From a virus, in the IMG/VR virus record IMGVR_UViG_3300050120_000121, positions 1 through 64,000 of that record: DNA of 64,000 bases; one strand, given 5' to 3'. A program made the position numbers and the translations under genes. This document shows positions 20,081 through 64,000 of the stretch, piece after piece (position 1 is the first letter of the stretch; each line of letters opens with the position of its first letter). The notes under the pieces were generated by a model. The model was not told the origin of the DNA and did no database searches. It was given only the letters and a program-made list of their open reading frames with translations.

Positions 20081-20754
20081 GTCCCGATGAGCAGGACGAG
20101 GCCGATGAATCGGCAGATGCCGAGAGAAATCAGGATTCCGAGAGCGATACAAAATCTCATCCAACATTGAAGTCCGAACGTTGGATAACCATCGGTGGCG
20201 ATAAAGATCCAGATGGCGACGGTGGAGGAACACACGTGAAAATCGACGACGACGGAAAGATTGTTGCGGGACCAGAAGGCTTGGCGGACAAGGGGATTCA
20301 GAAGTTGAGCGATTTCGGGAAGAATGAATCTGGCGAGTCGAAACCAGAAGAAAAACCAAAGCCAATTCCTCATGGGGAAGTTTCGTTTCGTGCGTCCGCC
20401 CCCGGTCACATGGGCGGAAAACAGCATATTGCCGAAATCACAGGTGCGGACGGACAATTTGGAATGGATCGCGATTTTGTCGACAAGAAAACCGGCAAGA
20501 AGCGAGATGAATCGGAACATACAACCAATCGACAAGGATTGTTCGAGGAGTCTGACATCACGTCGGCGGGAAAGAAAGTTCGCCATTTCGTGACACTTCA
20601 TCATCCTGAAACGGGAGTTTTAACTAAGCATCCTGTTGACAAGGAAACCGCACAGGCAATCGCGAACCATATTGGCGGAGACAACATTGAAAACGTCGTG
20701 CATTTGCGTGATGGAAAAATCCACATGACTGACGCTCCATCACGTGATTATTGA
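20077..20754 (+). CDS. Putative head-associated modular protein
   Basis: ATGA overlap with the portal; acidic leader, LKS, then RWITIGG...GTHVKIDDDGKIVAGP and an AEITGADGQFG domain. Confidence 0.65.
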   Translation: MSPDEQDEADESADAERNQDSESDTKSHPTLKSERWITIGGDKDPDGDGGGTHVKIDDDGKIVAGPEGLADKGIQKLSDFGKNESGESKPEEKPKPIPHGEVSFRASAPGHMGGKQHIAEITGADGQFGMDRDFVDKKTGKKRDESEHTTNRQGLFEESDITSAGKKVRHFVTLHHPETGVLTKHPVDKETAQAIANHIGGDNIENVVHLRDGKIHMTDAPSRDY

Positions 20755-20779
20755 TTCTTCTCAAGAATCTTTTCCAAAC

Positions 20780-20881
20780 TGACGAAGATATTATTGACAA
20801 TTAAAGTTAATTGATTACAATATCTTCGTCATGACTGCTGTGCGAAGCAGTCGAACTCAAACTCTTGCGAAGGAATGAATC
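20780..20881 (+). promoter_or_regulatory. Sigma70-type promoter inside a palindromic operator, followed by a leader hairpin
   Basis: TTGACA (20794)-16-TACAAT (20816); inverted repeat tgacgaagatatt/aatatcttcgtca; hairpin gactgct-gtgcga-agcagtc. Confidence 0.75.
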
Positions 20882-21136
20882 ATGTCGAACGCAACCGACC
20901 ACACGGCAATCAGTATCTCGATGGATGGCATATGGGCTGGAAGCGGCAAGTTGAGAGACGGCCAGATCGAAGATTGCGGGGCGCAATTCTGCGACGACAA
21001 CGACGAATCGCTCGAAGTCTATGAGATGATCGAAGACGCCATTGAGAACGGCGAAGACGAAGTTCGCGTCACGCTCGATGGCGAAGATCATACGATTACT
21101 TGGACGATCGTTGAACCGAGCATCGTGTCCGAATAA
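20882..21136 (+). CDS. Very acidic small protein
   Basis: 84 aa, about 22 D/E versus 3 K/R; AAGGA RBS. Confidence 0.75.
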   Translation: MSNATDHTAISISMDGIWAGSGKLRDGQIEDCGAQFCDDNDESLEVYEMIEDAIENGEDEVRVTLDGEDHTITWTIVEPSIVSE

Positions 21137-21150
21137 TCGCGAGGCTCCAA

Positions 21151-21495
21151 ATGTCGAATCATTGTGCAGAATGCTGGTATGAGATCTCCGAAAACTACGG
21201 TCGATGTGAAAAGTGCCATCAGAATGCGAAAGCAGTGATTTCCGAGAGGATGTCTCATGCCAGCGAGATCGGCGAAAAGTCGGAAGATCTCGCGATTCGC
21301 TTCACCTGCGAAATGAACGTCTTTTTCACTCAGATTCCCGAGACGGATGTTATGGTCGCTCGATTGCGTCAAGGCAGTGAGTTGATTCGTCAGATGATTG
21401 CTCGGTCGAAACTGACAAAGCATCAGTCGCAATACGTTTCCGCGATCGACCGAGTTGCGAATCGGGTGGCTCCCATGAATGAAGGAACAAAATGA
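21151..21495 (+). CDS. Zn-ribbon hypothetical protein
   Basis: CAEC...CEKC. Confidence 0.6.
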   Translation: MSNHCAECWYEISENYGRCEKCHQNAKAVISERMSHASEIGEKSEDLAIRFTCEMNVFFTQIPETDVMVARLRQGSELIRQMIARSKLTKHQSQYVSAIDRVANRVAPMNEGTK

Positions 21496-21836
21496 GCGAA
21501 CACGCTTTCACCTGTCCAAAGTGTGGCAGTCATTATTTCGGAACCGAAACGGAGAAGCGTCTAGGTAAAGTCGTCATTCTCGACACCGTCAAATGCCACG
21601 GGAAAGACTTCAGCGGAAAGATGTGCGACTGGCGAGGAGTTCATGGTCGCATTCACAAGGGTCAGACGACTGTTCCGTTCGGCTTGCGAATCAGCGAGGA
21701 ACTGTGCTCAAAGTTGCATGCGTCAACAACAGCCACGGAGCCAACAGCACAAGCTGTCGCGATTAAAATCCTGTCCGCCAGTATTGGCGTTGAATACATG
21801 CATCGAAGCGTTGGCAAACCTGCGAAATCAACTTGA
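21492..21836 (+). CDS. Zn-ribbon plus ribbon-helix-helix-like protein
   Basis: CPKCG N-terminus; Arc/MetJ-like segment VPFGLRISEELCSKL. Confidence 0.5.
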   Translation: MSEHAFTCPKCGSHYFGTETEKRLGKVVILDTVKCHGKDFSGKMCDWRGVHGRIHKGQTTVPFGLRISEELCSKLHASTTATEPTAQAVAIKILSASIGVEYMHRSVGKPAKST

Positions 21837-21943
21837 CGCTGACGATTGGCGGATCTGCCGTTATAGGCTTTGCCTACCAATTGCGTCCCCGTCCGAATCC
21901 GTGGGCAGGATTTTGAATTGGTGGGCAAGCGTCGTAAATCGTC

Positions 21944-22462
21944 CTATTCCGTGACTGGCGATTCGATAGGTTGTGGGCCGCTTGGCATAAATCTTGATTT
22001 AAATAGCGGCAACGTTAACGGAGGAAGCCCCATTTGAGACGTTGTCAAAAACATGAAATGCCGCACATAGGGCCAGAGCGTATTCATGGCGACTGCCGTA
22101 GCCAACTCGCCGTTCTCCGTGGTTGACTCATGGCTTGGAGACTGTCCAGCAGCGTGGATGTAAACCGCTTGGTATTCGCATTGCAACAACACTGCTGGCT
22201 CATCGTCTGAATCTTCATACGTAGTCGTAGCCTGACATGACACATTGATCTTGATCGTGTTTTCCTCAGGTGACAGGCCGATATTCGAGCCGACGTTAAG
22301 TTTTGTCTTTCCGGGAAACGCTCCTCCGCGAAGATTCAATTTGGAGGCTGAAGATGTCAACCTCACAATTTGCAATTCAAGATTGGCGAACGAGAACGGC
22401 ACCGCTTGGACGGTGGCAAGTTTTTTCGATCGCGATTTCGACTTTCGTGCAGCTTTCTTCAT
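21944..22462 (-). CDS. SecB-like chaperone of a TAC system
   Basis: SecB signature LWPYVRHFMFLTTSQMGLPPLTLP; ATG 22462 overlaps the antitoxin stop. Confidence 0.85.
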   Translation of the reverse strand: MKKAARKSKSRSKKLATVQAVPFSFANLELQIVRLTSSASKLNLRGGAFPGKTKLNVGSNIGLSPEENTIKINVSCQATTTYEDSDDEPAVLLQCEYQAVYIHAAGQSPSHESTTENGELATAVAMNTLWPYVRHFMFLTTSQMGLPPLTLPLFKSRFMPSGPQPIESPVTE

Positions 22463-22884
22463 GGTTGCATCGTAATAGGATTGAATTTCTTGAAACCGCA
22501 GGTGCTGGAAGTTGACGGGACATTGCTGGCATCCCAAGAGAGAGACCATGCGACATCGGACCCATCATTTCCTGTTGGAATGGGATCAAATGCTGGCTTG
22601 TCATACAACTCAACTCGCAGCCGTTTTCCAAGGGCGGCGGCTATCTTTTTGAGTACGCGCATGGAGTGACTGCCATAGTCGGCATCCTCGATTCTCGCGA
22701 TTACGCTTTGATACGTGCCAGCCAGATCGGCCAATTGTTTTTGTGTTAACCGAGCCGCGTTTCTGGCGCGATAGATCTCTCTGGCGGTATGTGCATCTAC
22801 GGCTGCATCTTCAACCATCGCTGCCAATTCTGGATTGTCAGCGAGTTTTTTCCGTATGACGGTGCCAAAGTCAGTTGTTTTCAT
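22459..22884 (-). CDS. higA: XRE-HTH antitoxin (HigA-like) with C-terminal chaperone-addiction-like extension
   Basis: LTQKQLADLAGTYQSVIARIE...LKKIAAALGKRL followed by a tail of about 45 aa containing DVAWSLSWD. Confidence 0.85.
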   Translation of the reverse strand: MKTTDFGTVIRKKLADNPELAAMVEDAAVDAHTAREIYRARNAARLTQKQLADLAGTYQSVIARIEDADYGSHSMRVLKKIAAALGKRLRVELYDKPAFDPIPTGNDGSDVAWSLSWDASNVPSTSSTCGFKKFNPITMQP

Positions 22885-23287
22885 CGTCTTCAACATTTCC
22901 GTTTACGAGTGTCCAGTCCGCGAGGTATGTAGATGGATCATGTTCGACCAATTTCATCCTCGCAACAGCTTTCGCGATGTCCTTCGGTGGAACTCTGTCT
23001 GTCTGCTTGATGATCCCGTGTGAAAGGCAAATGACATTCCGGCCTTGAAAAAAATACAAAACGCGGTAATGGATTTTTCGTTCTTTTGCTCGAACCTCGT
23101 AAATTCCTTGCTCAAGAGTACCGGACTGTGGACGCTCTGCTTCGTATCCGAGTTGTTCTACATATTGAATCGCGGCGAGCATTTTCGCATATGCCAACGG
23201 GACTTTGCGCTCAAGCACTTCGAGCCATATTTCTACGGGGATTTCACCGTTCTTTTCTCGAAATACTTTGAGCGTCGCTTTAGGCAT
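22871..23287 (-). CDS. higB: RelE/HigB-family toxin (Gp49/DUF891-like)
   Basis: PVEIWL...GIYEVR...YRVLYFF...LSHGIIKQT..VP..DI. Confidence 0.88.
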   Translation of the reverse strand: MPKATLKVFREKNGEIPVEIWLEVLERKVPLAYAKMLAAIQYVEQLGYEAERPQSGTLEQGIYEVRAKERKIHYRVLYFFQGRNVICLSHGIIKQTDRVPPKDIAKAVARMKLVEHDPSTYLADWTLVNGNVEDDENN

Positions 23288-23416
23288 TCTAGGTCCGCAA
23301 TCGCATTTTTGCTATGTCCTTCTCGGATTTCAAGAAGACGCATAAAAATGATGGTGGTTTGTAACGATACAATCGTCAGGAGTGGAATACCACGATTGAC
23401 GTGGCATTCGCGATAC

Positions 23417-23457
23417 AAAAAAACACGGGAATCGCCACCAAAAGACCGTTCCCGTGT
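23417..23457 (-). terminator. Terminator between transposase remnant and TAC operon
   Basis: Stem acacggga...tcccgtgt with an A-run on the left (U-run on the minus strand). Confidence 0.55.
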
Positions 23458-23484
23458 CCTCTGAATTGCAGTCGTACATTGGCT

Positions 23485-23733
23485 TTAAGACAACGTGAGC
23501 AGATTCGGCTCGATCCCCAGTTCGTACATGGCGGAAATTAGGCAGCAGATGTTATGACACAGCATTTTGCAGAGAACCTCATTCTTCATCGCCACAGGCG
23601 ATTTCGATCGAACCGCATCCCCGAACTTCCGCTTAATCATCGAGAACGCCGATTCGACGTTGGATCGCTTGTGGTAGGACGAAAGGAACTCTTCCGTGTA
23701 CAGGCTGAAAAAGTGAAACGCCTTTTGAAACAT
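23485..23733 (-). pseudogene. C-terminal fragment of a DDE transposase
   Basis: YHKRSNVESAFSMIKRKFG...EVLCKMLCHNI; only about 150 bp separate it from the TIR, so the N-terminus is deleted. Confidence 0.85.
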
Positions 23734-23985
23734 GCCACCGATGCTCCCCGTACCTGCTCATCAGCAAGCCGCGAGTTGCGAAGCCGGTTGCAGTTGCCGA
23801 GAATTGATTCCTGTGAGCAAACCCGAATTGGTGGGCAAGTTTTTGATTCCGTGGGCAAATCAGAATTGGTAGGCAAAGCCGCCGTTATAGTCCATGTCAG
23901 CAACCTTGATCCGAAGTCAGTCCAATTGCGTTCCTGATTTCGTGTTCGCTCAGTTGTGGCAGATCCAAGCGGGGAGGAATTGACG

Positions 23986-24189
23986 ATGGGTTCTACCGAT
24001 TTGAAAACCGAGAACATTCAACGGATGTTCGCGTCATTCTTCAGTAAGACGCCCAAAACAATTTCACTGGCGGAATGGCTTGGCAGGGAACCGACCGAAG
24101 CCGAAAAGATCGAAGTCGCGGCACTCAATCAGAATTCGAGCGATAACGAATACTTCTCGAAACTGATGAAGATGAAGGCGGGGATATGA
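23986..24189 (+). CDS. Hypothetical protein
   Basis: GGAGGA RBS. Confidence 0.55.
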   Translation: MGSTDLKTENIQRMFASFFSKTPKTISLAEWLGREPTEAEKIEVAALNQNSSDNEYFSKLMKMKAGI

Positions 24190-57868: not shown

Positions 57869-58488
57869 TCAGAATTTTCGGCCGTGCTCTTCCTCATGGC
57901 AAGACTTGCACATAATCTCCAAGTCGGTTTTTACGTTCTCTTTTCCGAGTCGTTCATACGTCAGGTGATGGCATTGCAGTTTCTTGAATCCGCCGCATCT
58001 GTTGCATTGTTTTCCGTGAATCCCAAACGCTTCGAGTCGCTTAATCTTCCATCTATCGGATCTCATGTATGCAATGTAAAACGGAGAAAAATTCGGTGTC
58101 GGTTGACTCGTTTTTCCGCCAGCACGTTGCTTCGAGCCGTTGCATTGTCGGTCCCGCTTCGCTTGCCTCCGCTGAAAACGATCTTGGATTTTGCATCCCC
58201 ACAGCAGCAATTTCTCTCCCGAAAGACCCTTCGGCGGTTTGTATTTCTGTCCGTCAATTACGACAAAATCAGGAGTTCCAATTTCTGGTATGCATAGGCG
58301 AGACTTTCGAAATGCGAGCTTGTCCTGTTGTTTCTGAATCTTCCTTTGCTGTTTTCGAGAGACAAAGGCTGGCTCTGGAGGCAGGAGTATCGGGGATTGC
58401 TCCGCTCGTTTAAATCGAGCATTATTCGCGGCAATCTTTTCCGCTGAGAAGTGCTTGACGATGGAGTATGGTTCCAATCGCCTTGAAC
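57869..58488 (-). pseudogene. HNH endonuclease gene, 5' end probably interrupted by the IS4 element
   Basis: YMRSDRW...CNRCG...LQCHHLTYERLG.E...LEIMCKSCH; the apparent N-terminus reads through the presumed IS end (PSAIR). Confidence 0.65.
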
Positions 58489-58673
58489 GAATGGCACTAG
58501 GATAAGGAAATTCCTCCCCCCTCGCCAATCCCGCGGCCGACATTCCTGCCCGCGGATCGACCCCCTACTCTTCAGCCTCACTCCCAATTGGTGGCGAACG
58601 TGAAATCCGCGGGATACGATCAAATGGAACGTCTCAAACGATGAGCCACCATTCTCGTTCCATCGGATGCCTG

Positions 58674-60389
58674 ATGCCCACCCATCTCGTCAACCTCGAT
58701 GCGCTCGTGCAACGCCAGGATTTTCGACACGGTTCGGACGAACCACCGCAACGCAACCGATTGAGCAGCGAAATCAAAATCGGGGAACTGGAAAGCAATT
58801 TCTTCCATCTTCTCAAAAAGCCGGATTTCCAACGAACGACGAACAACTGGTCATCCAATCGGATCATGGAATTCGTCAAGAGTTTCGTTGATGGAGATTT
58901 GATCCCATCCATCATCATGTGGTGGTCGCAAGACACAGGAACTGCATTCGTCATCGACGGGGCGCACCGGATGAGTGCTCTCGCGGCATGGGTTCATGAT
59001 GATTACGGAGACGGGGCCATTTCGCGAGCGTTCTGGAAATCGAACATTCCCGCGGCTCAGAAGAAACTCGCCGAAGCAACGAAGTTGCTGATTGATCGGG
59101 AGATCGGGCAGTATCAGAAGCTGAAGCGTCTTGTTCAGGATAATCCCGCGGGAAGCGACCCTGTCATGCTGGCACGGGCTAAGAATATGGCGACATTCAA
59201 GATCGACCTGCAATGGGTCGAAGGGAGCGCGGAAACCGCGGAGCGATCTTTCTTCCGAATCAATTGCAGTGCCAGCATCATCGACCGCACCGAACTGGAA
59301 ATCATCAAGTCACGTCGGAAGCCAAATGCGATTGCGACCCGAGCATTAATGAATGCAGGCACGGGACACCGCTATTGGTCAGGATTCTCCGATGAAGTTG
59401 GCGACGAGATTGAAAAACTGTCGAAGGAAATCGCGGTCAGCCTGTTCCAGCCGATCTTGGAAACGCCCGTAAAGACAATGGATTTGCCCATCGCGGGACA
59501 AGGGTATTCATCGAGTGCGTTCCAAGTCGTTTTCGATCTGGTGAATCAAGTCAATGGGGTCGCATCGTCGAAGCGAGCCCCGCGGATGCCGAAGGAAAGG
59601 AAAGTCGATCATTCAGTCGTTGCAGAGGATTCGGAGGAAGACGAAGTTCCCGCGGATGAGATCGCCGCGGACAATAGTCTTCCCGACGACAAGGACGGCA
59701 AGCAAACAATCGCCTATCTGAATGCCGTCAAGCGTGCCGCCCTATTGGTGTCGGGAAGCAAGGGTGGATCTCTCGGGCTTCATCCGGTGGTATATTACTA
59801 CGGAAAGACTGGGCGATTCCAATCATCCGCATTGCTGTCGACGATCAAGTTTGTGGAGGAACTGAAAAAGGAAAACCGCCTCGCTGAATTTACGCAGCAT
59901 CGCAATGATTTCGAGGAATACCTCGTTCATCACCGCCATTTCGTGAACAGTCTCGTTCACACGTATGGAAGCCGATACCGGTCGGTCGACGCATTGGTGA
60001 CGATGTACCGAATCATTCTCGCCCAAGTGATGGAAGGAAACGTGGATCACGACAAGATCACGCAAAAGCTGATCGGCGATTCGGCGCTGAGTTCATTAAG
60101 AGCGGCCATCGTTCCGAAGAAATCCCGCGGGAACAAGGAAAGTTCAAAACTCTCCGCCGCGGATCGGAGTGCCGCATTTCTCGCGACGGCAATCAATGGT
60201 GCCCCGCGGTGTTCAATTTGCAAAGCACGACTGCATTTGAGGGGTGTCAGCATCGACCACGAAAAGCGCAGGCAAGACGGCGGCACGAACGATGTCAGCA
60301 ATTTGAATCCGACGCATGCCTACTGCAATTCTGGATTCAAGGAAAAGAAACACCGCGAAACGAAGAAAAAAGCCGCGGACAAGTCGTAA
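58674..60389 (+). CDS. DUF262 (ParB/GmrS-like) plus C-terminal HNH nuclease, GmrSD-like
   Basis: KPDFQR...W...IPSII...VIDGAHRMSAL...FFRIN; CSIC...IDHEKRRQDGGTNDVSNLNPTHAYCN. Confidence 0.85.
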   Translation: MPTHLVNLDALVQRQDFRHGSDEPPQRNRLSSEIKIGELESNFFHLLKKPDFQRTTNNWSSNRIMEFVKSFVDGDLIPSIIMWWSQDTGTAFVIDGAHRMSALAAWVHDDYGDGAISRAFWKSNIPAAQKKLAEATKLLIDREIGQYQKLKRLVQDNPAGSDPVMLARAKNMATFKIDLQWVEGSAETAERSFFRINCSASIIDRTELEIIKSRRKPNAIATRALMNAGTGHRYWSGFSDEVGDEIEKLSKEIAVSLFQPILETPVKTMDLPIAGQGYSSSAFQVVFDLVNQVNGVASSKRAPRMPKERKVDHSVVAEDSEEDEVPADEIAADNSLPDDKDGKQTIAYLNAVKRAALLVSGSKGGSLGLHPVVYYYGKTGRFQSSALLSTIKFVEELKKENRLAEFTQHRNDFEEYLVHHRHFVNSLVHTYGSRYRSVDALVTMYRIILAQVMEGNVDHDKITQKLIGDSALSSLRAAIVPKKSRGNKESSKLSAADRSAAFLATAINGAPRCSICKARLHLRGVSIDHEKRRQDGGTNDVSNLNPTHAYCNSGFKEKKHRETKKKAADKS

Positions 60390-60415
60390 TGGCTTTATCT
60401 ATAAACAGTACCCGT

Positions 60416-60889
60416 TCAACACGTCCTGCGGCAATTCTGTTTCGGCATCCCATCAGTCTCCAATTTACAAACAGGCTTTCCAGCAGACGGCGGAGCATCC
60501 TTCGCCATCTTGAGTATCTTTTCGACTTCCTTCCGCTCTATGTCGCTCAGATCATTGACAAGGAATCTCGGTGCGGGATGCGTGTAGAATCGTTTGGCGA
60601 GAACTGGAGCCAAATGTCGGAAGTCCTGTCCCTCAGAGTCCCAAAGAATAAAGCGATCGAACATCACGACAGGGCCACAAATTCCGACATTCTTTACGTG
60701 TGGACCGATTCCAATCCAAGTCAATTTGTTTGCAATTCCCGTCAGAACCGGTTCTCGACTATCTCCTCCGATTCCAATTACTGCTTCAAAAAGAATGCTG
60801 CGCACTTGTCCCATGCAATCACGCAGACCGAAGCGCCCCTGTTTGTCTGGGTCGCCGGTGTGTGTTCGCTTATAGATGAGCGTTCGCAT
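60416..60889 (-). CDS. Conserved-looking hypothetical protein
   Basis: MRTLIYKRTHTGDPD..GRFG..DCMG.VR...AVIGIGG. Confidence 0.65.
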   Translation of the reverse strand: MRTLIYKRTHTGDPDKQGRFGLRDCMGQVRSILFEAVIGIGGDSREPVLTGIANKLTWIGIGPHVKNVGICGPVVMFDRFILWDSEGQDFRHLAPVLAKRFYTHPAPRFLVNDLSDIERKEVEKILKMAKDAPPSAGKPVCKLETDGMPKQNCRRTC

Positions 60890-61487
60890 TCGTTCCGCCT
60901 TTATTCGCCGACAATTTAACACGGCGAAACGCGCCACGTTTCGCGGCATGCGGATTCTACCAGAAGCCGACCATCGTTCGCGATGCGTCGGCTTTTTTCG
61001 TTTGCGGATCATTCACACAGATATTTGAGTGCTCATCAATTCGTCCATAATTCCTGAATATCCACGTCTCTAATTGACCAAGAGACCGTTTTTTCGCATG
61101 CAATTGCGATAACCATCGCTCATTGAAATTATTTCGCTCCTCTTCCGAGGTTCGTACACTCTCCACATCACTGGTGAAATACCGTCAACATCCTTGTGCG
61201 GTGATCGTCCGCCAATTCGCATCGGATAATTATTTTTCGCTCGCTGGATGCTTCTCTGTACTCTGATGGAATGCGGCCATCATCTGGTCGCGGCGTTTTT
61301 CGTTTATTTCGATCACCTTTCATGTTGTCGGAAGAGGACCAATGTCAGAAAATTTTTGCAGTCGCAGCGATTCTTCCGAAAATTCCGCTTCCCTCGCGAA
61401 ACTTGCAGTGGTAAAAGATGAGTCGCAAGAACGTGAAATGTATTTCACGTCAGGCATAATGTGACAGGATTGAACGGAGGGAAACCA

Positions 61488-61886
61488 ATGGCCGACGACG
61501 ACATGATGGCCAAAATCATCGACAAGCGTGCGAAACTGGTGGAACATATCGAGAAGATGCAGCTCAGATTATCCGTCTATGACGAACTGCTGGCGGAAAG
61601 CGGGGAAGATCTGAATTCAGGCGGAAATCCGGCCGCCAGCACGGAAAAGAAAATCGGCCCTACAGAACACGTCCTGAAACTGTTGGGCGAACACCCAGAT
61701 GGAATGACTCTAACAGAGATCATCGACGCGCCAGCGACTCGTGTTGAGAGCGAGTCCAAAGATCCGAAGGCCAATATCCGCAGCACGGTGACATACATGC
61801 TCCGAGCCGAGAGGCTGCAAAAGAACACGACAACCGACAAAATCACGATCAAGCCAAAAACCGTGAAACCGCCCAGTGAAGCGTGA
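61488..61886 (+). CDS. Coiled-coil plus winged-helix protein
   Basis: GGAGG RBS; VLKLLGEHPDGMTLTEI. Confidence 0.65.
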   Translation: MADDDMMAKIIDKRAKLVEHIEKMQLRLSVYDELLAESGEDLNSGGNPAASTEKKIGPTEHVLKLLGEHPDGMTLTEIIDAPATRVESESKDPKANIRSTVTYMLRAERLQKNTTTDKITIKPKTVKPPSEA

Positions 61887-62199
61887 TGATCCGAATCTTG
61901 ACACGAACATGAACGCGAGGTGCATGATGGACAAAAAATAAAACCCCAAGTCGCAAGGTGCGATCAAGGGGCTCCGATCGAAAGTCCCATTTTGATTCCA
62001 CTCGGACCAACATGCTTTTGGGAAAGGGCAGGTCTGAGCGGGTCTAGCTAGGCACCCACGATGTCTGCGGTAATTCGCGGCTTTGCACCGTCGTTTTGGT
62101 TTTTCCTCAGTCGAAGGCAATATCGGTCTCAGACCGGTCAAGGATGCACGCAATTGTGATGTATCGTAGCTTTTCACTGGACCGAAATCCAGAACGTTT

Positions 62200-62412
62200 T
62201 TAGTCAGGGATGGCTTTGGTCGCTGATGCCTTTTTCTTTTCTTTCTTCGCGGCTTGCTTTAGGCGGTCGCGAATCCATTTGGAAAGATCGAGCCCAGCGA
62301 TCTTGGCCGCATCCTCAAATTCCTGACGCTCTGACGTATCGACCCGAACTATGACATGGGCGTCTTTACGCTCGTCATCGTCTTTCGCCGGTCTTCCACG
62401 TGATTTCGCCAT
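62200..62412 (-). CDS. Ribbon-helix-helix protein divergent from the transposase
   Basis: RGRP...IVRVDTSERQEFEDAA...LSKWIRDRL. Confidence 0.75.
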   Translation of the reverse strand: MAKSRGRPAKDDDERKDAHVIVRVDTSERQEFEDAAKIAGLDLSKWIRDRLKQAAKKEKKKASATKAIPD

Positions 62413-62636
62413 GCTCGCATTGTAATCCGAAAAATCATTTCGTCAACAGATGTTTCCGATTGACTTCGGTGATTAAACGGATTACAATTAATCCCGTTGG
62501 AACGCCAATTCCGACATAAGAAAAACCCCGCTTCGACGCCAATCGAAACGGGGTTCCAGATCAAACCGGCGAACCGGAATGCCCTGTAAGCAATCGCATT
62601 CTATGGATTCGCCCAAGTCAAGAAAAGGACGAATCC

Positions 62637-64000
62637 ATGCCGCGAAAAGACTTCAAGGCTGTGCGTGACACTTTTGCGAACGATAGCGGACTTCCGTTCG
62701 GCCGCATTCTCACCCGCGATCATGTCGTGGGCGTGCTCGAATCCGAAGGACACAAATACCGTCAGCGAGTGTTCTGCCCGTTGGTCACGCTTTGGGCGTG
62801 GCTAAGCCAATCTCTCAGTCAGGACAAATCATTGAATGAGGCGGTCAGTCGCATTCTGGCACATCGCGTTGCAACCGGATTGCCAGCATGCTCAGCCTCG
62901 TCGTCAAGTTACACTGACGCCCGCATTCGATTTCCGCTGCCAGTGTTGATTCGACTTGCAAAAGAGATCGGGCGAAAGGTTCACAACTCTGCCGACGAGG
63001 CATGGCATTGGCGCGGACGAGAAGTGTTCCTTGCCGATGGCACCACTCTTTCGATGCCTGACACTGAGAAAAACCAGTTGAAGTACCCTCAAGTCAAAAC
63101 TGTCGCCGCGGGACTTGGGTTTCCGATTATGCGGTCGGTTGCATTAATCTCCTTGTCGACGGGTGCTGTCATGGATTTTTCATGTGGTCCATTCGAAGGG
63201 AAAGGCACGGGTGAGGGTGCTCTGTTGCGACAGACGCTCGATACGATGAATCGCGGTGATATTCTTGTCGCAGATCGGTATTACCCAAGCTATCGCACGT
63301 TGTCCGCCTTACTGCCCCGCGGAATCGACCTCGTGTCGATCAGTAACGCGTCACGAATCGTCGACTTCACGGAAGGATTTCAACTGGGCGACAACGATCA
63401 CATCGTAACGTGGTATAAGCCGACGCGACCCGCGGGGATCGGCGACGAAGAATTCGCGGCGTTTCCAGACACGATCTGCGTCCGGGAGTTTCTTATAGAT
63501 GTCGAGTCTCGCGACGGAGGGACCGAACAGGCAATCGTTGTCAGTACGTTGACCGATCCAACAATTCCGCAGGAAGAGATTTCGAATCTGTACTGGAAAC
63601 GATGGAATTGTGAACTGGACTTGAGGTCAATCAAATCCAGCATGCATATGGATATTCTCCGCGGGAAAACGCCAGAAATGGTGCAAAAGGAAATCTATGC
63701 CCACTTGTTGGCTTACAATCTGATCCGCGGGACGATGACGGAATCGGCCAAGAGAACGGGACTCATTCCGCGGCAACTGAGTGTAAAGGGCTGCATGCAA
63801 GCCGTCGAATCATTCACTCCTGCAATGATGGCGACATCCGCGGGAGATGTTCTGTATGATGCCCTGCTGACGACCGTTTCGGCTCATCGCGTGGGAAATC
63901 GGCCGGGACGATTGGAACCGCGGGTTAAGAAACGTCGTGATCCGTGGGCGAAATCGAAGATGAAAAAACCCCGAAACGAGTACCGGAGACGTTTGGCGAA
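62637..64000 (+). CDS. IS4-family DDE transposase (3' end runs off the window)
   Basis: VFLADGTTLSMPDT, LVADRYY, YREK motif LYWKRWNCELDLRSIK, C-terminal RPGRLEPRVKKRR; AAGGA RBS. Confidence 0.93.
   Translation, partial: MPRKDFKAVRDTFANDSGLPFGRILTRDHVVGVLESEGHKYRQRVFCPLVTLWAWLSQSLSQDKSLNEAVSRILAHRVATGLPACSASSSSYTDARIRFPLPVLIRLAKEIGRKVHNSADEAWHWRGREVFLADGTTLSMPDTEKNQLKYPQVKTVAAGLGFPIMRSVALISLSTGAVMDFSCGPFEGKGTGEGALLRQTLDTMNRGDILVADRYYPSYRTLSALLPRGIDLVSISNASRIVDFTEGFQLGDNDHIVTWYKPTRPAGIGDEEFAAFPDTICVREFLIDVESRDGGTEQAIVVSTLTDPTIPQEEISNLYWKRWNCELDLRSIKSSMHMDILRGKTPEMVQKEIYAHLLAYNLIRGTMTESAKRTGLIPRQLSVKGCMQAVESFTPAMMATSAGDVLYDALLTTVSAHRVGNRPGRLEPRVKKRRDPWAKSKMKKPRNEYRRRLA

Follow-up and report, generated by a model that had tools for sequence, protein, structure and literature searches.

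A cassette with IS903-like ends and a transposase stub carries a predicted toxin-antitoxin-chaperone operon in a tailed phage genome

Analyzing the first 64 kb (positions 1-64,000, here called the window) of the 99.9-kb IMG/VR virus record IMGVR_UViG_3300050120_000121, we found that the 2,015-bp segment at 21866-23880 is a transposon-derived cassette that was inserted as one unit, since it has perfect terminal inverted repeats, a 9-bp target duplication, and junctions that are bridged in independent runs. Its single intact cargo operon appears to encode a toxin-antitoxin-chaperone (TAC) module of the HigBA-SecB type, and only a stub of a transposase gene accompanies it. Very probably, this is a cassette of the transposase-less mobile-insertion-cassette type, derived by internal deletion from an IS903-like cargo transposon whose transposase combines a SWIM zinc finger with a DDE catalytic domain. 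TAC systems are known on prophages, but to our knowledge the route by which they arrive there has not been documented; in this phage, the delivery vehicle of a TAC is still visible. Two points are new, namely, the non-autonomous, cargo-bearing form of the transposon family and a TAC as its cargo.

The 17-bp terminal inverted repeats of the cassette, which start with GGCTTTGCC, are complementary at 17 of 17 positions, and GCCGTTATA, a perfect 9-bp target duplication, abuts both of them; six conserved subterminal repeats are retained (Table 1). By an analytic estimate, about 0.02 perfect 17-bp inverted pairs (≤5 kb apart) are expected by chance per 64 kb, and about 7e-8 once the abutting 9-bp direct repeat is added. 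In the 99.9-kb record the 17-mer occurs at the two cassette ends and nowhere else, even with 2 mismatches allowed. A preliminary description of this DNA, made from its letters without database searches, had reported the perfect 17-bp repeats, the length of 2015 bp, and the perfect 9-bp duplication and had proposed the 17-mer search; all of these features were recovered exactly, and the search returned only the two cassette ends.

The replicon that received the cassette is a tailed peat phage of ~100 kb in which terminase, portal, and major head proteins are recognized, and a planctomycete is its likely host. The insertion site is intergenic, between the portal and MuF genes, in a gap that runs from a 114-residue open reading frame (ORF) ending at 21836 to the next ORF at ~23956, and no gene is interrupted. 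All four reading frames of the element lie on the minus strand of a phage genome that is otherwise almost uniformly plus-strand. The junctions, for which the preliminary description had still awaited the support of reads, are both bridged by contigs from other peat metagenome runs, with contigs of run X4 covering 20411-22372 and 23150-24097 and run X6 covering 21738-21917. None of the contigs of other peat runs compared with the window skips the element, the fragments of X5 and X6 being uninformative on its absence. Scans of viral contigs with the 17-mer, the left-flank protein, the portal, and relatives of the chaperone returned a chance match (L003) or nothing, and no related phage. There is minor variation of the cassette within the population, seen as a G>A change at window position 22664 in run X4, within the antitoxin gene, while the X4 pieces of the flanks are identical. 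The preliminary description had also pictured the entry of a TAC into a prophage; the record is that of a phage contig.

It is hardly credible that the repeats are a product of chance or assembly and that the TAC genes are resident accessory genes of the phage. In favor of such a reading, element and phage have equal GC contents and the searches revealed no empty site; against it stand the chance expectation of ~7e-8, the bridging of both junctions by contigs of other runs, and the orientation of the genes against an almost uniformly plus-strand genome. Moreover, as described below, transposons of other metagenomes in which the transposase is intact have matching ends and subterminal repeats, and the stub lies exactly at the transposase position of the family.

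The stub aligns by tblastn (23754-23497, minus strand) with residues 316-401 of the 402-residue protein P0001, the closest full-length transposase (95% identical to the stub), at 94% identity over 86 residues. Within it, an ORF of 82 residues (23733-23485) is open from the conserved Met323, with stop codons upstream. P0001 has a SWIM finger at about residues 46-60 (C46-H60) and the catalytic residues D214, D289, and E349; the stub retains only the YREK/E349 block, the finger, D214, and D289 being absent. Because E349 is the only catalytic residue that it holds and the SWIM finger is missing, the element cannot transpose on its own. This bears out the earlier account of a non-autonomous element with a transposase reduced to its last ~80 codons, of which we align 86 and find 82 in an open frame. 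The 85-bp stretch that precedes the stub (23740-23824) may lie at the deletion junction or may be what remains of the leader of the parent.

In other transposons, truncated transposases serve as inhibitors, and by analogy the retained 82-residue ORF could encode a dominant-negative regulator that damps the transposition of related elements. We consider this very improbable. In its favor, the conserved Met323 opens the ORF and has GGAG ~9 nucleotides upstream, the frame is unbroken and shares 94% identity with P0001, and a Pyrinomonadaceae genome likewise has C-terminal stubs near a family end (L137, 328-400; L136, 298-398). However, 82 intact codons are expected after any recent deletion, the breakpoints vary between cases, database "transposases" of 146-178 residues start near residue 245 and not at the breakpoint of the cassette, and nothing indicates that the ORF is expressed. 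The idea that deletions recur at a single breakpoint was likewise considered and rejected, the short database proteins beginning at ~245, the L136 stub at 298, and the L137 stub at 328. The Pyrinomonadaceae genome has eight transposase matches, its stubs lying at L137 2530-2853 and L136 4908-6419; a family end lies 105 bp from the L137 stub, which resembles the arrangement in the window, and opposite ends were not found for L137 or L136.

A metagenome scan for the exact 17-mer gave 112 matches, 109 of them by chance and 3 true. One end of a 5,185-bp element with the duplication TTCCAGACA (L054) carries it, and so do both ends of a 3,614-bp element with the duplication GGTCTGACC (L078+L024), which indicates that matching transposases exist in nature. 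The transposases of both elements are intact and are 86% (L054) and 79% (L078+L024) identical to P0001. What the cassette and these two elements have in common is limited to the transposase, a proximal end of ~55 bp, and a distal end of ~65-78 bp, with three repeated motifs conserved at each end. Since the ends and transposase are common and the intervening ~1.5 kb, from the transposase stop to the distal end, is unrelated among the three elements, the conserved backbone has a defined cargo slot, which the TAC occupies. The cassette has the other features of the family as well, namely, GGCTTTGC-type ends, subterminal repeats, the 9-bp duplication, and slot cargo, and has the transposase as a stub only.

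A second member of the family, an autonomous one, resides in the same phage, outside the window (G000:C1:76935-80782; L144 2936-6783), so that a single phage genome can hold at least two. It measures 3,848 bp, has ends GGCTTTGCC(C/T)CATAAGTC that match at 17 of 18 positions and the duplication CACCAAGCG, and encodes an intact 406-residue SWIM+DDE transposase together with a 374-residue P63C-domain passenger. Thus, full-length transposase copies with other cargo, which the preliminary description had suggested looking for, do exist (L054, L078+L024, and this second element). No significant match to P0001 was found in the window from 58478 to 64000 and beyond.

The operon in the cargo slot consists of three overlapping minus-strand genes in the order toxin-antitoxin-chaperone. 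We regard it, from sequence comparisons and, for the chaperone, also from its predicted fold, as a genuine HigBA-SecB TAC, because its toxin resembles HigB, its tailed antitoxin HigA, and its chaperone SecB, and because the three genes stand in the order found in Mycobacterium tuberculosis. The toxin matches Pfam PF05973 (Gp49) at 1.7e-18 over the entire profile, and its best match in the PDB is HigB (6af3_A), M. tuberculosis HigB1 being weaker. For the antitoxin, comparison with relatives places the probable true start at 22884, and its PDB matches are HigA2 (7ewc, 1.4e-5) and HigA (6af3_B). It carries a Trp/Phe-rich C-terminal extension of ~45 residues, which is conserved in the relatives P0274, P0275, and P0276 (P0274 and P0276 come from contigs of 29,948 and 101,007 bp, respectively, equal in size to those of chaperone relatives) and is absent from the closest other antitoxin relatives, proteins of ~100 residues that stop right after the helix-turn-helix (HTH) domain. 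This extension is a candidate chaperone-addiction region, and this pattern of presence and absence has been described for such regions (bioRxiv 10.1101/2024.02.24.581848).

By itself, the third protein is recognized as SecB by Pfam and NCBIfam at an E value of ~0.05 only. An exhaustive search gave 238 relatives of 130-230 residues, and a profile of 80 of them matched M. tuberculosis Rv1957 (5mtw) in the PDB at an E value of 4e-14 over nearly its full length; 18 of the 80 match Pfam SecB. Its AlphaFold2 model (mean pLDDT confidence score 86.8) has four strands followed by helices, and in Foldseek the best match is again 5mtw (E value 1.9e-8, TM score 0.76), followed by the SecB proteins of Escherichia coli and Haemophilus influenzae. 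The profile and the fold thus sustain the earlier claim that a three-gene TAC is the only intact cargo. A predicted complex of the chaperone tetramer with antitoxin residues 96-145 scored 0.29 against a mark of 0.32 and was counted neither way, and PADLOC gave only weak matches, the chaperone matching PD-T4-9_C at 4e-4. The promoter-like site upstream of the toxin gene is the sole match of a consensus scan in the region and is not above chance.

Table 1. Coordinates of the features of the cassette and its borders in the window
Feature	Position	Strand	Remarks
Left copy of target duplication (GCCGTTATA)	21857..21865	.	Identical to 23881-23889; abuts terminal repeat
Transposase-distal end	21866..21928	+	17-bp inverted repeat at 21866-21882; 86-89% identity to matching ends of L054 and L078+L024
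Two subterminal TTGCCCAC-type motifs in opposite orientation	21896-21908, 21916-21928		Motif scan
SecB-like TAC chaperone (putative), 172 aa	21944..22462	-	Start overlaps antitoxin stop (ATGA)
Antitoxin (putative), HigA-like HTH, 145 aa	22459..22896	-	Pfam HTH_3, 1.1e-7
Toxin (putative), HigB/Gp49-like (RelE/ParE superfamily), 138 aa	22871..23287	-	First gene of operon; overlaps antitoxin start
Promoter-like site TTGAAA-17-AAAAAT	23305..23333	-	18 bp upstream of toxin start
Transposase stub	23485..23754	-	Pfam DDE_Tnp_1 positions 150-200 of 200; tblastn with P0001
Stretch of 85 bp between conserved end and stub	23740..23824	.	No match to L054 or L078+L024 by blastn (word size 7)
Transposase-proximal end	23825..23880	-	17-bp inverted repeat at 23864-23880; 81-88% identity to ends of L054 and L078
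Two direct subterminal repeats of proximal end	23846-23858, 23826-23838		Motif scan
Right copy of target duplication	23881..23889	.	

The transposon family from which the cassette derives is large and carries cargo as a rule. The stub has >3,000 relatives, and the full-length ones are proteins of ~400-420 residues with a DDE_Tnp_1 domain, many of them also with Pfam SWIM. Their best NCBIfam model is that of the IS5 family (NF033579), which P0001 and its relative P0003 match at 121.5 and 113 bits, both below the cut-off of 140, and plasmid-borne IS5-family transposases are 23-29% identical over the catalytic half. From these comparisons, the parent appears to be a member of a distinct clade of cargo transposons with a SWIM+DDE transposase of ~400 residues and not IS903 proper. 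The label "IS903-like" of the preliminary description therefore stands for the GGCTTTG ends and the 9-bp duplication but not for the transposase, which belongs to this separate clade below the IS5 cut-off. In our literature searches, SWIM+DDE IS903-like cargo transposons were nowhere described.

We delimited 13 insertions of the family: six in species genomes (L008, L009, L010, L012, L018, and L019), four in one Pyrinomonadaceae genome (L139, L140, L141, and L143), two in metagenomes (L054 and L078+L024), and the second element in the phage that bears the cassette. All 13 carry passenger genes and range from 2,955 to 7,388 bp, and no plain 1-kb form was seen. GGCTTTG ends and a perfect 9-bp duplication are found in 11 of the 13, in L008 only when the ends are set one base further out; in the other two, L009 and L010, the ends read GACTTTG/GGCTTTG and the repeat is 10 bp long. 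The named cargo, part of which is made up of defense or toxin-antitoxin genes, includes a type IIG restriction-methylase accompanied by a PD-(D/E)XK protein, GmrSD, a Fic protein paired with an HTH protein, a Panacea-domain antitoxin with an adjoining ORF, a ClpP-like SDH protease, and GIY-YIG, CAP, and P63C proteins. L009 (2321-6284) and L010 are 3.97-kb copies, 99.9% identical, that lie at two sites of a single Gemmataceae chromosome and have separate duplications; therefore, whole family units move. Their target repeats, GGGAGACCCG and CGGGTCTCCT, are near reverse complements of each other, and the target may be a repeated palindromic element of that genome.

The family also includes miniature elements of ~100 bp that lack a transposase and have their own 9-bp duplications (L054 138-218 + 5404-5430, L024 621-748, and L140 4155-4252). 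In two cases, a full element sits 18-27 bp within the end of a relative of this kind, which suggests that the family prefers the subterminal DNA of its own members as a target.

Several further observations concern the arrangement and cargo of other family members. In L140 (4155-7226), CACATTGCG occurs three times, bordering a miniature element, a 2,955-bp element, and the start of a third, so that tandem family insertions are separated there by the same 9 bp. On contig C43 (L012 6832 / L143 844), two elements lie 10 bp apart with overlapping targets, CCCTAAGGT and CCTAAGGTG, and the target shared by L012 and L143 also flanks an end in L137. L004, an IMG/VR contig of 122,834 bp, has a family transposase and three family ends (2580, 5281, and 7938) with no matching 9-bp duplications, which suggests nested or rearranged elements. 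In L054 (4293-5341), which of the delimited autonomous relatives is the closest, the Panacea-domain antitoxin (PF13274, 2.5e-22) overlaps a 174-residue ORF that belongs to no family, and the pair is a candidate PanA-type toxin-antitoxin system with a new toxin. The three-gene operon of L012 was considered as a possible TAC and rejected, as it is not homologous.

The insertion can be pictured as follows. A transposase of the family would have joined both ends of the element to staggered cuts 9 bp apart in the intergenic phage site, which would give the duplication of GCCGTTATA. The internal deletion would have removed the DNA-binding and zinc-finger part of the transposase and two of the three catalytic residues, and with them autonomy. 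The subterminal repeats are putative transposase-binding sites, and with both terminal and all six subterminal repeats retained, a matching transposase supplied in trans should still move the cassette. The cargo slot, which begins after the transposase stop and extends to the distal end, holds one self-contained operon. On the model of the TAC systems of M. tuberculosis and E. coli, its HigB-type toxin would cleave mRNA in a ribosome-dependent manner, the unstable C-terminal tail of its HigA-type antitoxin would impose dependence on the chaperone, and the dedicated SecB-like chaperone might, as in E. coli HigBAC, also act as a sensor, setting the toxin free once the chaperone is competed for by a protein of a foreign phage. 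Toxin activity and the chaperone dependence of the antitoxin are thus expected by analogy, and the most likely role of the module in the phage would be the exclusion of competing phages and/or addiction.

Whether the transposase was deleted before or after arrival in the phage bears on how the cassette moved. We give even chances to a deletion that preceded the insertion, with mobilization in trans. Such mobilization is plausible because the cassette has kept its ends, there are autonomous elements whose termini are identical, and transposase-less elements of ~100 bp have duplications of their own. Alternatively, a full-length autonomous TAC element was inserted and its transposase was deleted later in the phage, leaving the cassette as an immobilized fossil, and we rate this somewhat below even. 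A stub free of stops and frameshifts over 86 codons, with 94% identity to a living transposase, fits a young deletion, and phage packaging limits would favor the loss of dispensable DNA. Moreover, the existence of a full-length TAC-bearing element is suggested by P0122 (chaperone, 71%), P0274 (antitoxin, 85%), and P0035 (a 409-residue transposase), because each comes from a single 29,948-bp contig. However, a 3.8-kb family member whose transposase is intact is tolerated in this phage, the cassette has lost neither of its ends and none of its subterminal repeats, and miniature derivatives of the family clearly move in trans. The data date neither the deletion nor the insertion relative to the other.

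Several observations weigh against derivation of the cassette from the SWIM+DDE family by deletion and its insertion as a mobile unit, which we nevertheless prefer. No empty-site allele was found in the other peat runs or in the scans of viral contigs, and no second copy of the exact cassette was found at another site in the record or in the metagenome scan with the 17-mer. Foreignness is not marked by GC content, which is 49.2% in the element and 50.7% in the flanks. The closest full-length transposase, P0001, which comes from a 20,833-bp contig, entered the comparison as a protein. The only full-length family transposase in the phage, that of the second element, is 57% identical to P0001 and 71% identical to the stub, and the ends of that element diverge after the ninth base. 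Because of this 71% identity and of ends that differ after the ninth base, the second element is unlikely to be a helper of the cassette and is a poor candidate for that part. The recent insertion proposed in the preliminary description agrees with the perfect repeats but has no empty-site allele beside it.

Beyond the single cassette, backbones with transposases 79-86% identical to P0001 carry wholly different cargo in the same slot, and the family produces both non-autonomous, cargo-bearing cassettes and 100-bp miniature elements. We tentatively consider, giving it less than an even chance, that the family is a modular shuttle, in which a backbone of two ~55-80-bp ends and a transposase carries exchangeable defense or addiction modules of ~1.5 kb, and cassettes are moved in trans by autonomous siblings. 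If so, the cassette would be not a fossil but an active vehicle, travelling between phage genomes and the chromosomes of hosts and supplying phages with TAC and other conflict systems. Should mobilization in trans prove possible, the cassette would offer a small natural system for studying how defense modules spread between bacteria and viruses.

Compared with known systems, the family is closest to IS903 in its ends and farthest from it in content. IS903 has ends that begin with GGCTTTG, inverted repeats of ~18 bp, and a 9-bp duplication, and its ~1.05 kb hold one transposase of ~307 residues and no passenger genes. The family shares with IS903/IS903B the GGCTTTG ends, the 9-bp duplication, and a DDE_Tnp_1 domain with a Y-x2-R-x3-E-x6-K block, and the IS5-family model is the best NCBIfam match of its full-length members. 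In contrast, its transposase has ~402 residues with an N-terminal SWIM zinc finger, and its elements are 3-7.4 kb long, with passenger genes and three repeated motifs at each end. In a direct comparison with IS903, the matches in a Klebsiella plasmid fell in an unannotated ISCR1-armA stretch, not in an annotated IS903, and had no GGCTTTG ends.

In its design, the cassette resembles mobile insertion cassettes (MIC231 and the "mic" elements of qnrD and qnrS2), in which insertion sequence-family ends and a target duplication surround cargo other than a transposase and no working transposase is present. MIC231 of Bacillus cereus, which derives from IS231, is mobilized in trans by the IS231A transposase (PMC3913671). 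The cassette of the window may be mobile in a like manner. The two differ in family (IS4/IS231 versus SWIM-DDE IS903-like), and the cassette has a transposase stub, TAC cargo, and a phage as its replicon.

As a TAC, the cargo has the gene order of M. tuberculosis HigB1-HigA1-Rv1957, and its chaperone is nearest to Rv1957 by profile and fold, although the two are only 18-20% identical in the fold alignment. The Gp49/HigB toxin and the HTH antitoxin with a predicted disordered, aromatic C-terminal extension are likewise those of HigBA-SecB TAC systems; the extension measures ~45 residues, closer to that of M. tuberculosis than to the 96 residues of E. coli HigA. Prophage-borne HigBAC of E. coli defends against other phages, its chaperone sensing a tail protein (bioRxiv 10.1101/2024.02.24.581848). 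The module of the window is phage-borne like the HigBAC of E. coli NT1F31 but appears to have been delivered in a transposon cassette and does not lie in a phage defense hot spot.

Finally, toxin-antitoxin or defense genes as passengers link the family to larger transposons, since Tn3-family transposons reportedly carry toxin-antitoxin pairs and Tn7-like transposons carry defense cargo. Unlike these, the family relies on a single IS5-like DDE protein, with no resolvase and no TnsABC, its elements are far smaller, and in the cassette even the transposase has been deleted.

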